The position numbers and the translations under genes are program-made. 64,000 nucleotides of DNA from Candidatus Bathyarchaeota archaeon (lineage in GTDB: Archaea > Thermoproteota > Bathyarchaeia > TCS64). The stretch spans positions 160,001-224,000 of the forward strand of contig CAVYLP010000001.1 of NCBI GenBank assembly GCA_963769425.1. Direction: 5' to 3'. Below are positions 19,480 through 55,361 of this stretch, one piece after another. Position 1 is the stretch's first letter; every line of letters starts with the position of its first letter. The notes under the pieces were generated by a model, which did no database searches, was not told the origin of the DNA, and saw nothing but the letters and a program-made list of their open reading frames with translations.

Positions 19480-20415
19480 ATGCCTAAAATAACCTGCCTC
19501 GCCGGCGGAGTCGGAGCCGCACGACTCCTCCAAGGCCTCATCAAAGTCGTACCCCCGAAGGACCTAACCATTATAGTCAACACAGGCGACGACTTTGAGC
19601 AACATGGTCTACATATCTCCCCCGATGTCGACATCATCACCTACACACTCGCAGGCATCGTTAACGAGCAGACTGGCTGGGGCATACGCGGCGACTCCTT
19701 CCAATGCCTCAAGGCCCTGGGCATACTTGGACACGAGACATGGTTCAACCTCGGCGACGCAGACATGGCCACCCATATAAGCAGAACCAGACTCCTCAAG
19801 GAGGGCCACACACTATCCGAGGTAACGACTATGCACGCCAAGTCACTCGGCGTAGAGGCCAGAATTATCCCGATGACCGATGATCCATTCGCCACGCATA
19901 TTGCTATTGATACTGGGCTCGTGCACTTCGAGGAGTACCTCGTTCATAGGGGGGCATCCGATGCTGTCAGGGGTGTGAAATATGTGGGAGCGGAGGAGTC
20001 TAGGCCTGCCTCGGGGGTAATTGACTCATTGATGGAGGCGGATTACGTCATTGTGTGTCCTAGTAACCCGATTGTGAGCATCGGCACAATACTTAGAGTC
20101 CCCGGAGTCCGAGATGCATTATGTGAAACCGAGGCGAGGGTTACAGCGATCAGCCCCATCGTAGGCGGTGCACCCGTTAAAGGTCCTGCGGACAAGATCA
20201 TGGCGGGTATAGGGTTAGAAGTGTCATCCCGCGCCGTCGCGGAGCTATACCGGGACTTCCTCGATACCTTCATAATTGATAACCGGGATCAGAGCCACGC
20301 CGAGGCGATCGAGGGATTGGGAATTAATGTAATGGTTACGAACACGATTATGGGTACCCTTGAGGATAAGGTGGCTCTAGCTGAGGCTGCCCTTAGATCA
20401 TTAGGTAACCTGTAG
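19480..20415 (+). CDS. cofD: 2-phospho-L-lactate transferase (F420 biosynthesis)
   Basis: LAGGVGAA, NTGDD, SPDVD, WFNLGDAD, PSNPIVSI and GPADK. Confidence 0.95.
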   Translation: MPKITCLAGGVGAARLLQGLIKVVPPKDLTIIVNTGDDFEQHGLHISPDVDIITYTLAGIVNEQTGWGIRGDSFQCLKALGILGHETWFNLGDADMATHISRTRLLKEGHTLSEVTTMHAKSLGVEARIIPMTDDPFATHIAIDTGLVHFEEYLVHRGASDAVRGVKYVGAEESRPASGVIDSLMEADYVIVCPSNPIVSIGTILRVPGVRDALCETEARVTAISPIVGGAPVKGPADKIMAGIGLEVSSRAVAELYRDFLDTFIIDNRDQSHAEAIEGLGINVMVTNTIMGTLEDKVALAEAALRSLGNL

Positions 20416-20427
20416 GCGACTTAGAGG

Positions 20428-21093
20428 ATGGGAGGGGTATATGCTCTTGTGCCGGTGAAGATGCTTCGGGACTCGAAGTCCAGACTATCAAGCATCCTTG
20501 ACCCTGAAGAGCGTGTGACCCTTACACTTATGATGCTCGAGGATGTGGTTAGGGAGATTCAATCATCGGGACTAGTCTCGAAGATTCTAGTAGTGACACC
20601 TGATGAGAGGGTCATCCGGTTCGCCGAGAGGCTCGGCATCGGGTCTTTCGCGTCGAATTCGGGGGATCTTAACACTGATTTGGAGAACGCGTTAGCCTGG
20701 TGCAGCGGTGACGAAGCTGGATCTGCGTTGATTGTCTTAGCAGACCTGCCTACCCTCTCGGGTGATGATCTAAGACACATAATCGAGCAGGTTTCCCGTG
20801 ACCCAATCGTCGTGATTTCACCTTCGAGAGATGGTGGCACGAATGTGCTCTTTATGCACCCATGTGGATTAATTAGGCCTAGCTTTGGTGTCGGGAGTTA
20901 CGAACGACATATACTTCTATTAAAGTCGATCAGCACTGACGTGAGGATCTATAGATCTTTGGGCACATCTCTGGATATAGATACGCCAGATGACGTTCGT
21001 GAACTCTTAGCGACAAAGGATTCTTCTAATTCTCCGTTAAAATCCTTGGTATATTTACGAACGATTATCAAAATGTCTAACTCATCGATTTAA
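20428..21093 (+). CDS. cofC: 2-phospho-L-lactate guanylyltransferase
   Basis: VPVK, SKSRLS, ADLP, DGGTN and DIDTPDD; adjacent to cofD. Confidence 0.93.
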   Translation: MGGVYALVPVKMLRDSKSRLSSILDPEERVTLTLMMLEDVVREIQSSGLVSKILVVTPDERVIRFAERLGIGSFASNSGDLNTDLENALAWCSGDEAGSALIVLADLPTLSGDDLRHIIEQVSRDPIVVISPSRDGGTNVLFMHPCGLIRPSFGVGSYERHILLLKSISTDVRIYRSLGTSLDIDTPDDVRELLATKDSSNSPLKSLVYLRTIIKMSNSSI

Positions 21094-22179: not shown

Positions 22180-22552
22180 CTCAGTTTTCCAATTAAAATA
22201 TTGAATTCAATGCTTTATAAACAGGTGAATAAGAAAAACGGATAATTGGCGATTCAACTTTTTCGTAAGGATTATGTATCAATAAAGTAGTTTCCAAAAA
22301 CGGATCTGGTGCCTGGAAAATGTTGGATAACAATGTTTTCAACCTGATGTGCACAGTAATAAAGAACGAGTATGAGAGGAACGCCGAGGAGTGACGAGCT
22401 GCGCCGGTCCTAAGCACCATTATGCCAAATAAGACACCGAATGCACCCTTCTGACATCGAGATCCTGAACCACCAAAGAGACGACAAAATCAGCGAGGTA
22501 CTTTAAAAATCGGTCTCCCTTCCCCTCACCCGCACCACGTAGATTTCTCACC

Positions 22553-22980
22553 AAACCCCGCTGCACACTCTTCCACGTATTCAGCTATATATAGCGAAGT
22601 CATCGGGGACGCGTCGCCGGAACCATCTGAAACGTGTCGAAAACCGTTGAATATCGATTGAAAACCGTTGCATTCCGTGTGCCTTCAACATCCATTGAAG
22701 GGCGTGGGACGCGATTCATTGAACGATGTGAATAGAGGTGGGTTGAGTGGACGCCATTCAGTCGAAGGCGTAACTCAGTTTGGATGCGTTTAGTCATCGG
22801 TGTGAAGGGTGTCCCGTGGAAACACCTTATTAGTGGTTACCACTTACAGGGAAACATCATGGCAAGCGGGTTGGCGAGGGGAGGACTCGGGGAAGGCATT
22901 CGGTTGATCCTCTCAGCTGGTGTTGGGGGATATGACCGTTTTAAACCGGTATTATTCAATAAAGGGACAAGGCAGCGCGC
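22553..22980 (+). ncRNA. Multi-copy ~425-nt structured non-coding element, copy 1 (candidate ncRNA or non-autonomous mobile element)
   Basis: About 89% identical by manual alignment to 54849-55274; multiple hairpins with + strand G-U pairs, a compensatory change, and terminal CGCTGC/GCAGCG pairing. Confidence 0.6.
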
Positions 22981-22982
22981 GA

Positions 22983-23137
22983 TACGTTCAACTCGAAAAG
23001 GTACTCTTCAAGGAACAGAATGAGGGTTTCACTGCAAGGTCTCCAAGACAGTCGAAGAGGTGGTTGAGCTAATCGAGTTTGGCTTCGAATACTTCAACGA
23101 GATAGACTAAGTATTCCCCTACAGGAAGCGCAAGTAG
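22983..23137 (+). pseudogene. C-terminal remnant of a tyrosine integrase
   Basis: YVQLEKVLFKEQNE / FHCKVSKTVEEVVELIEFGFEYFNEID*VFPYRKRK* (frameshift plus stop); resembles, from memory, the C-terminal tail of Bathyarchaeal tRNA-adjacent integrases; converges on the tRNA 3' end. Confidence 0.65.
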
Positions 23138-23160
23138 AAACAGGGCTCGGTTGGATGAGA

Positions 23161-23238
23161 TGGCGGGCCCGGTGGGATTCGAACCCACGACCATCAACTC
23201 CGCAGGCTGATGTCATATCCTGGCTAGACCACGGACCC
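23161..23238 (-). tRNA. tRNA-Arg (GCG), intron-less, encoded CCA
   Basis: GGGTCCG acceptor/CGGGCCC-G-CCA; anticodon arm TCAGC-CTGCGGA-GTTGA; GGTTCGAATCCC T-arm. Confidence 0.97.
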
Positions 23239-23313
23239 AGCACCCAAACAGACCTGTTTCTCCTAGATAAGCTCTACCCAGAGCTTATAGACGGGGTCCG
23301 CGGGCACATATCC

Positions 23314-24484
23314 ATGGCGGGGGAGGCGGAGGACAGGGCGGGGCTCCTCAGGGTCCTCTACGTCACAATCTTCCTCACCGCCACGGGACTCGGCACCGCC
23401 TCCTTCATGCTCCCCGTCTACGCGACTAGCCTCGGCGCCAACTATATCGACCTCGGCCTAATGGGGGCGCTCCGGAACATCGTCTACACCATCATGACCC
23501 TCACGGTCGGCTACCTCCTCGATAGGTTCGAGAGGATCAGGATATACGTCGGCTTCATGTTCATCGGCGTCGCCGTCGTCGCCCTCTTCGGTATCATGAC
23601 ACAGGTCGCCCTCCTGATAGCGTGGAGCAGCCTGCTCGGCCTCGTCTCCGCGGCGTTCTGGGTGACCGCGAGCACGGTCACAGCGAACATCTCGCCCCCC
23701 GAGAGGCTTAGCCAGTCGATGGGACGCTATAATTTATCGTGGATTATTGGTTTTGTCGTGGGGCCAACCGCCGGCGGCTACATCGTCGACGCCTACGGAT
23801 ACCAGACACTCTTCCTCTGCTTATCCGCCGTCATTGTAACGAGCATCGTAATTATCTTATGGAAGATTAGGCCGGCTAATAACGCTCCGCAATAGCAGTA
23901 GTTCCAAGGGCTCCAGTCTTGCACCACTTAAAGGACTCGCCCTCGCCTACCTCACACTCATCCCCTTCACCTGCATCCTCGGCATCTACATGGCAATAAT
24001 GCCCGGATACCTGAAGCTAGTCGGGCTCACTCCAGCGATCGTTGGGCTTCTCCTCACGATGACGAACGGGGTCCGCGGGGTTGGCTTCTTCAACGCTGAG
24101 AGGTTCATCAATTGGGGAACTAGGAGGTCAGTATCCCTAGCTTCTCTTCTCCTATTCACTGGGATGATCGTCTTCTCATTCGCGTCCTCCACCCTAGAGT
24201 ACGTCATCCCATTAGTCCTGTACGGCATCGCAGCGGGAATAATGACCCCGTTAATGCTCGACTACATCGCAAAGCGATGCGACAAGGGGAGCCTTGGCGC
24301 TGCAATGGGGTTCCATGAGGGAGTATACGGAGTCGGTATGTGCCTCGGCCCACTTGTGGGTGGAGCAATAGCTGACATCTGGGGGCCGCCACTCCTCTAC
24401 AGGCTCCTTGCTGTACTCGCCCTAACAATGCTTCCACTAGCCTACACGCTCTCGAAAAGAGGGGACAAGAAGACCTCGGATTAA
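23314..24484 (+). pseudogene. MFS transporter (one frameshift near 23880)
   Basis: GYLLDRFER motif A-like in the N-half; C-half GAAMG..GVYGVG.CLGPLVGG in another frame. Confidence 0.8.
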
Positions 24485-24585: not shown

Positions 24586-24875
24586 CGCTGCTAGGAATAA
24601 CGGCGTGGAAAAAACGTTATACCACCCTACTAGGAATCGGAACCCTGCTACATGGAGTCGGAACCCCGCTAGGTGGAGTCGGAACGCCACAGGTAGGAGT
24701 AAAATCGTGTTTCATGACTCCCGCTACGTGGAAGAGACTCGCCGCTGCAGGAGTTGGAACCCCTGCTACTAGGAATCGGGACGCCGCTGCTAGGAATTGG
24801 GAAACCCTGTGGCTTGGAGTCGGAACGCACCAGCGGGTGTCGGTGCCCTTGCTACTAGGAGTCGGAACGCCGTTG
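24586..24875. repeat. Degenerate ~21-bp tandem repeat cluster, consensus GCTACTAGGAGTCGGAACSCC
   Basis: Units at 24626, 24647, 24668, 24744, 24765, 24786, 24809 and 24851, plus partial units at 24586 and 24689. Confidence 0.8.
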
Positions 24876-25174
24876 CAGGGTTTACGGGGAGGAGTGTTCA
24901 TTTGAGGAAATACGTCTTCACGGAGATTGAGCGGAGGAGGCTCGAGGAACTCATCACGAGCTTAAAGAGATAATGAGTGACGTGAGCGGGATAGAGTCGG
25001 CCAAGCTGAGGGAAATGGATGTGATGATCAGGGCCGTAAGAGCTTCGTGAAATTCAGTCGAGTTCTCTAGGGGATGACCTTGCTACGAGCCATCTACTAC
25101 ACTTTGTCTTTCATCCGTGACAGGAGTCACTTCATCGGGGGTGTTCTAGACACGAAGACTGGTAAACTTAATTT

Positions 25175-54380: not shown

Positions 54381-54690
54381 ATGCAGCACTCCCTCAGGGT
54401 AGATTAAGGTTCATCGACTTCACACGCGGCGTGATCATGGCGTTGATGGCGTGGGACCACATCGCGGGGTTCTGATACTCACAGCACTATGGGAGTGAGG
54501 GCCTCGGGGGGCTCTTCCCCTACCTGAACGGCGACCTCCTCCCCTTCATAGCTCGTTTCATCACCCTCTACGCCCCCACCTTCTTCTTCCTCTCCGGGAC
54601 CTCCATAGCCATTTCCACGGCCCGGAAGCTGCAGAAAGGTGTGAGCCAGAGGGAGATATCGCTCCACCTCATTAAGCGGGCGGCACGCGC
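54381..54690 (+). pseudogene. N-terminal fragment of DUF1624/HGSNAT-like membrane protein
   Basis: IDFTRGVIMALMAWDH..*...RFITLYAPTFFFLSGTS...HLIKR; internal TGA, truncated at ~54680. Confidence 0.7.
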
Positions 54691-54848
54691 ATCCGACACG
54701 AGGCACAGAGGAAACAACTAGTAACAATGGCTCGAAGCCTCCGAACCAAATAAATAACACTCGCTCACCGAACCAGGGCCGATGCTCTAAAGATAAATAC
54801 GATTTTAAGAAAGCTACTTAGGAAACTCTCAACAACAAGGCTTCCTAA

Positions 54849-55274
54849 AAATCCCGTTGCATTCTCCTCCACACATTCAGCTATATATAGCGAAGTCGTC
54901 GGGGACGCGTCGCCGGAACCATCTGAAACGCGTCGAAAACCGTTGAATATCGATTGAAAACCGTTGCATTCCGTGTGCCTTCAACATCCATTGAAGGGCG
55001 TGGATCGCGGTTCATTGAACGATGTGAATAGAGGCGGGGTGGGTGGACGCCATTCAATCGAAGGCGTAACCCAGTTTGGATGTGTTCATTCATCGGTGTG
55101 AAGGGTGTCCCGTGGAAACACCTTATTAGTGGTTACCACTTACAGGGAAACATTGCAAGTCGGGTTGACGAGAGGTAAACTCGGGGAAGGCATTCAGTGA
55201 ATCCTCTGAGCCGGTGTTGGGGGTTATGACGATTTAAAACCGGTATTAATCAATAAAGTGACAATGCAGCGCGC
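54849..55274 (+). ncRNA. Multi-copy ~425-nt structured non-coding element, copy 2
   Basis: Direct-orientation homolog of 22553-22980; terminal stem CGTTGCATT/AATGCAGCG. Confidence 0.6.
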
Positions 55275-55361
55275 TATAATCCGGGCAGGCTGTTGACTGA
55301 GTTCATTCTACCTGCTGTGAAATGAGAGATCCCATTTTCAAAAAAGGATGCTCTAGTACGT

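Follow-up and report, generated by a model that had tools for sequence, protein, structure and literature searches.

A dispersed repeat family with IS-type ends in a Candidatus Bathyarchaeota genome, probably descended from a small mobile insertion cassette

The two window copies and the family to which they belong

The window analysed here, a stretch of 64,000 nucleotides from the genome of a Candidatus Bathyarchaeota archaeon, carries two copies of a repeat in the same orientation. Copy 1 is located between cofD/cofC on one side and a tRNA-Arg gene and an MFS transporter gene on the other, and copy 2 follows the 5' part of a membrane-protein gene. The cofD (2-phospho-L-lactate transferase) and cofC-like genes upstream of copy 1, at 19480-21093, belong to coenzyme F420 synthesis. 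Two adjacent plus-strand ORFs, 23155-23895 (246 aa) and 23990-24484 (164 aa), both match MFS_1 and may represent either two separate genes or a single one that a frameshift or stop has divided; tandem repeats with a period of 21/42 nt (24633-24879, 2.5-3.3 copies, 68-87% matches) are found just 3' of them. The left flank of copy 1 has no counterpart in the genus. At gathering score, the tRNA-Arg is the only Rfam match in the window. The parts of the two copies that are used throughout are as follows.

22405-22981, plus strand: copy 1 at its full extent, from BLAST to the complete copy C4:377136-377722 (88%) and from a multi-way alignment
22546-22917, plus strand: core of copy 1, non-coding, at least partly present in 14 of 14 copies and, among the genomes searched, found in this genome (G000) only
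22584-22595: TATA-box-like palindrome GCTATATATAGC, conserved for the most part (alignment columns 46-56, 11 in all, are invariant), with a putative promoter role
22823-22846: block of 24 nt containing AGTGGTTACCACT (22832-22844), invariant in 14 of 14 copies and the longest invariant run (columns 290-313)
54689-55274, plus strand: copy 2 at its full extent, consisting of module B, core and right arm; BLAST to C6:356170-356703 covers 54689-55212
54689-54848, plus strand: module B, ~160 nt, found only in copy 2 and in the long copy C6:355967-357100
54849-55212, plus strand: core of copy 2, from alignment

A preliminary description of this DNA, made from the letters of the window, had reported a duplicated element of about 425 nt. 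Its two copies are indeed present in the same orientation, 22553-22984 and 54849-55278 being ~90% identical over 432 nt by BLAST, with 93% identity between 22553-22852 and 54849-55148 and 85% between 22867-22984 and 55161-55278. The homology, however, runs further left than had been described, to 22405 in copy 1 and to ~54689 in copy 2, and the number of copies is not two but 14. A BLAST search of the own genome (G000, 2.55 Mb) located the core at 14 loci spread over all 6 contigs, with 80-93% identity, and a covariance model built from its best-conserved 116 nt recovered the same 14 loci. All 14 are situated outside ORFs of at least 100 aa, as judged from crude ORF calls. The complete copies measure 508, 510, 515, ~600 and 628 bp, in addition to one long form of 1134 bp. 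Terminal inverted repeats (TIRs) are present at both ends in six of the 14 copies and at one end in another six (four right only, two left only), and the remaining two, C1:414797 and C2:92732, have neither. Both window copies belong to the class with the right TIR only: copy 1 has kept its left arm and lacks the left TIR, which takes up ~43 nt at the start of a complete copy, no pattern match being found there, and copy 2 lacks both the left arm and the left TIR.

The BLASTN comparison that had been proposed at the outset was productive within the genome, where it yielded the 14 copies, whereas in 400 other genomes of the class it returned the core only as three partial matches of 27-73 nt (G006, G042 and G102). 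With the covariance model, none of 70 further genomes of the family yielded the core. Two public collections (genome and metagenome contigs), from which records of this genome itself may be absent, gave 0 matches in four exact-motif scans, and a distant blastn search of phage and plasmid collections with 22405-22984 found no match. The TIR and the subterminal arms, unlike the core, are found in several genomes of the genus.

Folding, coding capacity and conservation of the core

The preliminary description had presented the element as a highly structured candidate for a new large ncRNA or ribozyme, based on seven stems with 54 pairs. The sequence features from which it started are real: the palindromes GCTATATATAGC and AGTGGTTACCACT and a repeated AAAACCGTTG are present, and copy 1 accommodates all seven stems. 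The 432-nt stretch nevertheless folds no better than dinucleotide shuffles, with MFE z-scores of -0.68 on the plus and -1.43 on the minus strand, which does not bear out the term highly structured. The pair A22746-T22775 is replaced by G-C in copy 2 (alignment columns 211/241) exactly as had been noted, but across the full family it is unpaired in eight of the 14 copies. In the 14-copy alignment none of five measures for the 54 pairs exceeds the shuffled control: 90.7% of the cells are paired, compared with 35-45% when the partners are slid (a contrast expected by construction), and 312 of 500 shuffles reach that value; pairs with two-sided change number 2 as opposed to 1.8 in shuffles, 316 of 500 of which reach the observed number; and the covariation score of the proposed structure is reached by 471 of 500. 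RNAalifold predicts 85 pairs on the same alignment, one of them with two-sided change. The power of these comparisons is low, as the 14 copies are closely related (effective sequence number 1.12), and missing covariation alone is weak evidence.

It had further been argued that most substitutions in the stems work only on the plus strand. Where cells deviate from the Watson-Crick pair of the majority (such cells are not independent events), we counted 29 of the G-U type, 18 of the A-C type (which pairs only on the minus strand), 20 other mismatches and 1 compensatory change, so that no clear strand preference emerges. Folding at the level of the alignment gives z -3.1 on the plus versus -2.6 on the minus strand, values that are generous because column shuffling does not preserve dinucleotides, and the SCI is 0.69 versus 0.66; such similar scores on both strands fit DNA palindromes. 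The GCAGCG half of the proposed terminal stem, moreover, sits inside the right TIR of the transposon. The hairpins that were noted first are DNA palindromes and a transposon inverted-repeat end, not a selected RNA fold. In line with the preliminary description, no Rfam family matches the element at gathering score; permissive settings gave two chance-level matches (E 0.17 and 0.89), far below gathering, and none was found on the long copy. That description had itself named a transposon end and the lack of significant covariation in a larger alignment as findings that would tell against its ncRNA or ribozyme alternative, and both were encountered.

No codon periodicity is seen in the core, where the variable sites are distributed 32/27/28 by phase; reading frames shift between copies and no ORF is conserved across them. 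A plus-strand ORF has no Pfam match. On the minus strand, an ORF of 52-85 codons occurs in most copies (in another frame in two of the 14) and was rejected as a coding candidate, its variable sites being spread 21/14/16 by phase with no bias; it has no relative at near lengths in a collection of 5.8 billion proteins. A scan of 22300-23300 for sigma-70 promoters and intrinsic terminators, which was not designed for archaeal promoters, returned 0 sites each.

Across the copies 33.5% of the alignment columns vary, and they do so unevenly along the core (variance/mean 2.2-2.6, permutation p 0.0004-0.005), although two bins account for part of this unevenness and one of them holds multi-base differences in two copies. 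Taken with the 24-nt invariant block, the uneven variation could mean that part of the core is under constraint. The motif TCCCGTGGAAAC at 22812-22823 adjoins the invariant block and resembles, by resemblance only, the 13-bp mini-ORB TTCCAGTGGAACT; each element has one such site. The mini-ORB is described as being recognised by Cdc6/Orc1 in Pyrococcus, and a single mini-ORB as giving no stable Cdc6 binding (PMC1904270).

Ends, partner IS and nested architecture

Alignment of the copies with their flanks reveals an inverted repeat of ~28 nt at the outer ends. A pattern scan detected it at the right end of both window copies and at the ends of further copies. The same scan located a TIR pair 1274 bp apart at C3:52070-53343 that encloses a 278-aa ORF at C3:52266-53102 with a Pfam DDE_Tnp_1 match above cut-off (E 4.8e-17) and a weak DUF772 match. 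The first 23 of the 28 nt of the TIR match the end of this 1274-bp IS, and the 23-nt end GCGCGCTGCCTTGTCCCTAAATT is identical between the right end of the IS and the left end of the element. A second IS copy starts at C3:327483 (to ~328756) and has a 279-aa ORF with 84% aa identity to the first; the two copies (L021:1071-2344, corresponding to C3:52070-53343, and L022) measure 1274-1278 bp, and further, broken pieces of the IS are found on C4 and C2. The genome therefore contains two full-length DDE ORFs of 278/279 aa within ends that match those of the element, as would be expected of an autonomous IS able to act in trans. An IS110-family transposase gene (361 aa, DEDD_Tnp_IS110 and Transposase_20; L022:2427-3512) adjoins the second IS copy.

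The presumed partner resembles IS5/IS1182-type IS in having DDE_Tnp_1 and a weak DUF772 match, and carries the 23-nt ends of the element. Unlike them, it scores below all cut-offs of the NCBIfam IS-family models, the best being IS1182 (72.8 bits, cut-off 270) and IS5 (49.4 bits, cut-off 140), so that its placement in either family is tentative. The interior of the element has no similarity to that of the IS, and a tblastn search of the elements with the IS transposase found no match. The window itself contains no transposase of the DDE_Tnp_1 IS type. Direct repeats in the manner of a target-site duplication were not seen around the six complete copies or the IS; MITE direct repeats are reported to wane with age (PMC10969869), and a duplicated target might be concealed by the terminal GCGCGC, which reads the same on both strands.

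The origin of the arms can be traced to a sister genome, G016. It contains a TIR element of ~500 bp (L027:1447-1947, or G016:C8:329836-330336) that has the same ends and subterminal sequence, and whose sole gene is an intact winged-helix ORF of 120 aa at L027:1526-1888 with HTH_5 (ArsR-type) and Lrs14-like matches. The protein has a Cys-rich tail. Judged by its sequence, this is a transposase-less mobile cassette with a putative DNA-binding protein. Full-length, stop-free matches to the 120-aa ORF, seven in all, are found in four of 17 other genomes of the genus (G016, G011, G012 and G002). In G000, three broken remnants are listed, to which tblastn adds short stubs of the N-terminus from other copies; the passenger gene that is intact in G016 is destroyed in every G000 copy seen. 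The cassette-derived and inserted parts of the window copies are listed below.

22441-22497, plus strand: what is left of the winged-helix ORF in copy 1, namely its first ~19 codons, from alignment with the G016 ORF and C6:356048-356101
22498-22545, plus strand: first part of the DNA that interrupts this ORF, common to C4_377, C6_480 and C6_356
22844-22918, plus strand: fragment captured from the 3' end of a coding gene, which resembles the final ~25-35 codons for a 293-aa protein in G006
22918-22981, plus strand: right arm of the cassette in copy 1, from alignment with the right end of the G016 cassette
22953-22980, minus strand: right TIR of copy 1, a pattern match at C1:182953-182980 with 4 mismatches to the 28-nt TIR pattern
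55247-55274, minus strand: right TIR of copy 2, a pattern match at C1:215247-215274 with 5 mismatches

The nesting is most completely preserved in the long copy, C6:355967-357100, in which codons 2-19 of the winged-helix ORF precede the core and codons 18-34, 77-107 and 110-120 follow it. Since remnants of the ORF lie on both sides, the core and module B interrupt the gene after codon ~19. When the ORF remnant of copy 1 is read on into the insert, a stop is met at 22504-22506; the rest of the winged-helix gene is deleted from this copy, and for that reason its core abuts the right arm at ~22917/22918. A further break of the cassette gene, at the codon that is also affected in the repeat family, is found at C1:94820-94955 (L023:821-956), where a solo left TIR and the first 18-19 codons of the ORF are followed by unrelated AT-rich DNA. 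Four copies, each preceded by unrelated DNA, have one internal start in common (TCTCACCAA, corresponding to 22545-22547), which is also where module B is inserted; random decay does not explain such a shared start. The 3' ends, on the other hand, vary among core copies, and five copies terminate within the proposed RNA fold.

At its 3' end the core carries ~73-99 nt that are a fragment of an unrelated gene. By tblastn the similarity to the G006 protein amounts to 60% over 25 aa in copy 1 and 60% over 35 aa (E 3e-6) in C6:356629-356733, and blastn gives 78-80%, with 78% over 73 nt. The remaining ~300 nt of the core have no similarity to the IS, nor to the G006 locus beyond those 73-99 nt. The 293-aa gene of the source type in G006 (L028:1100-2342, G006:C153) has a weak DUF5678 match (E 0.016-0.039) and adjoins a CRISPR array of 37-nt repeats; this repeat is absent from G000. 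The same gene lies ~2.3 kb from the orthologue of the tRNA-Arg/MFS locus of the window, which puts copy 1 close to the region orthologous to the surroundings of the fragment's source gene.

Origin of the family, rival readings and insertion sites

Given these findings, we consider it probable that both copies in the window, now decayed and truncated on the left, belong to a MITE-like family of non-autonomous transposable elements that has 14 copies and descended from a small mobile insertion cassette. Of the two alternatives left by the preliminary description, a ncRNA or ribozyme selected for its single-stranded fold is not upheld, and a non-autonomous mobile element is right, in view of the 14 dispersed copies and the TIRs that match a DDE IS; the family is new, while its kind is already known. 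The ancestor would have been a cassette of ~500 bp with IS-type ends around a winged-helix gene. This gene would then have been interrupted after codon ~19 by the core, the 3' part of which would be the captured fragment of another gene. An IS5-type DDE transposase would bind the shared ends and move the element in trans, and the copies would later decay by deletion. Mobilisation in trans by the DDE transposase of the end-sharing IS is likely and is, on the sequence comparisons, the best-supported account of a transposition that we infer. Both window copies are probably immobile now because the left end has been lost.

MITEs, MICs and solo IRs are described as IS-related objects that are activated by a cognate transposase (PMC3129680; PMC10969869), and prokaryotic MITEs as typically <500 bp (PMC10969869). 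The family shares with MITEs the lack of a transposase, an intergenic location, internal hairpins, TIRs that match an IS of the same genome and a multicopy, dispersed occurrence (14 copies on 6 contigs). It differs from them in the larger size of its complete copies (508-628 bp, and 1134 bp in one case), in the lack of direct repeats at the element ends, in an interior that is unrelated to the IS and forms a mosaic with two gene fragments, and in the loss of one or both ends from most copies, both window copies included. Mobile insertion cassettes (MICs) are described as IS-type ends around passenger genes without a transposase (PMC3129680). The ancestral form in G016, G011, G012 and G002, a ~500-bp TIR element with one 120-aa winged-helix gene, is alike, whereas in the G000 family the passenger gene is broken in every copy seen, and for this reason the G000 family behaves as a MITE rather than as a cassette. 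Gene-fragment-carrying non-autonomous transposons are known from plants as Pack-MITEs. The element is comparable to them in carrying a captured fragment of a host-type gene together with the start of another gene, but its fragments are short (~19 and 25-35 codons) and frame-shifted among copies, and nothing suggests their expression.

Other readings of the core have to be set against this transposon origin. The possibility that it is a multicopy gene for a large structured ncRNA or ribozyme, selected for its plus-strand fold, draws on local hairpins that are kept in most copies, on a consensus folding energy below that of column-shuffled alignments and on blocks that are invariant in 14 of 14 copies. 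It has to contend, however, with single-sequence z-scores close to those of shuffles, with covariation no better than in shuffles, including the pair broken in eight copies, and with a minus strand that scores about equally; the Rfam search at gathering score, the 70 other family genomes without the core, the five copies that end inside the fold and the stem half that is a transposon TIR also speak against it, and we regard this reading as very unlikely. Another reading holds that the best-conserved ~270 nt of the core (~22581-22855) are a functional module riding the transposon, spread to 14 sites and kept by selection, either as a putative RNA gene with a TATA-like promoter or as a protein-binding platform made of the 13-nt palindrome and TCCCGTGGAAAC. 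We hold this to be quite improbable; if true, it would represent a rare archaeal mobile regulatory or RNA element.

It is also unlikely that the conserved core of the transposon is functional cargo at the level of DNA, namely a mobile protein-binding or promoter module, for instance for a regulator or for Orc1/Cdc6. The TATA-like palindrome, the 13-nt palindrome and the TCCCGTGGAAAC motif would be its candidate sites, and uneven conservation with the 24-nt invariant block around AGTGGTTACCACT, the 11 invariant columns of the TATA-like palindrome and the mini-ORB-like stretch at 22812-22823 can be cited in its favour, as can promoters and protein-binding sites borne by MITEs, which are described as known in bacteria (PMC10969869). 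Yet a co-oriented ORF of at least 100 aa is found downstream of only five of the 14 copies and seven lie between convergent ORFs (crude ORF calls), a single mini-ORB is reported not to bind Cdc6 stably (PMC1904270), the unevenness stems partly from the two bins mentioned above, and among the genomes searched the core is limited to one. Finally, it might be speculated that the core represents a second mobile unit in its own right, which uses a non-TIR mechanism, inserted into the winged-helix cassette and also moves alone. The internal start shared by four copies beside unrelated DNA, the insertion of module B at that position, the variable 3' ends and the two copies without either TIR are consistent with such a unit. 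One of these two, C1:414797, nevertheless runs into a remnant of the cassette ORF, and C6:709309 ends in the right TIR of the cassette, so that both derive from the composite; only the 3'-truncated C2:92732 is free of all cassette sequence, and the core has no conserved target, hairpin end or encoded enzyme, which renders an independent unit highly improbable.

We contend that a candidate new large ncRNA should in this case be corrected to a transposon-derived repeat. The family provides an example, from an uncultured lineage, of an IS-ended cassette that loses its passenger gene, gains foreign fragments and multiplies as a MITE-like family. Annotation should mask the IS ends and the loci of all 14 copies ahead of any search for RNA genes.

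The transposon origin also helps in reading rearrangements, as is evident at copy 2. The search for empty sites that had been proposed at the outset gave a mixed outcome: relatives lack the element at the copy 2 locus, but that site is also rearranged, and neither of the complete copies C6:853725 and C3:349312 yielded a clean empty site, the synteny of their flanks not being kept in relatives. In G008, G012 and G006 the outer flanks of the copy 2 locus are 15-26 nt apart, without the element. Homology to G002 ends at ~54683 and resumes at ~55350, and between these points G002 has ~800 nt of the membrane-protein gene; G000 keeps the 5' part of this gene (to ~54683), and the element replaces its 3' ~800 nt. 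Given that the element is present where relatives are without it and that part of a host gene is missing, insertion appears to have been accompanied by loss of host DNA. The 75 nt that follow copy 2 (55275-55349) match a different G002 contig (C24:19029-19109, 89%), and the region 54389-55349 is rearranged relative to the genus.
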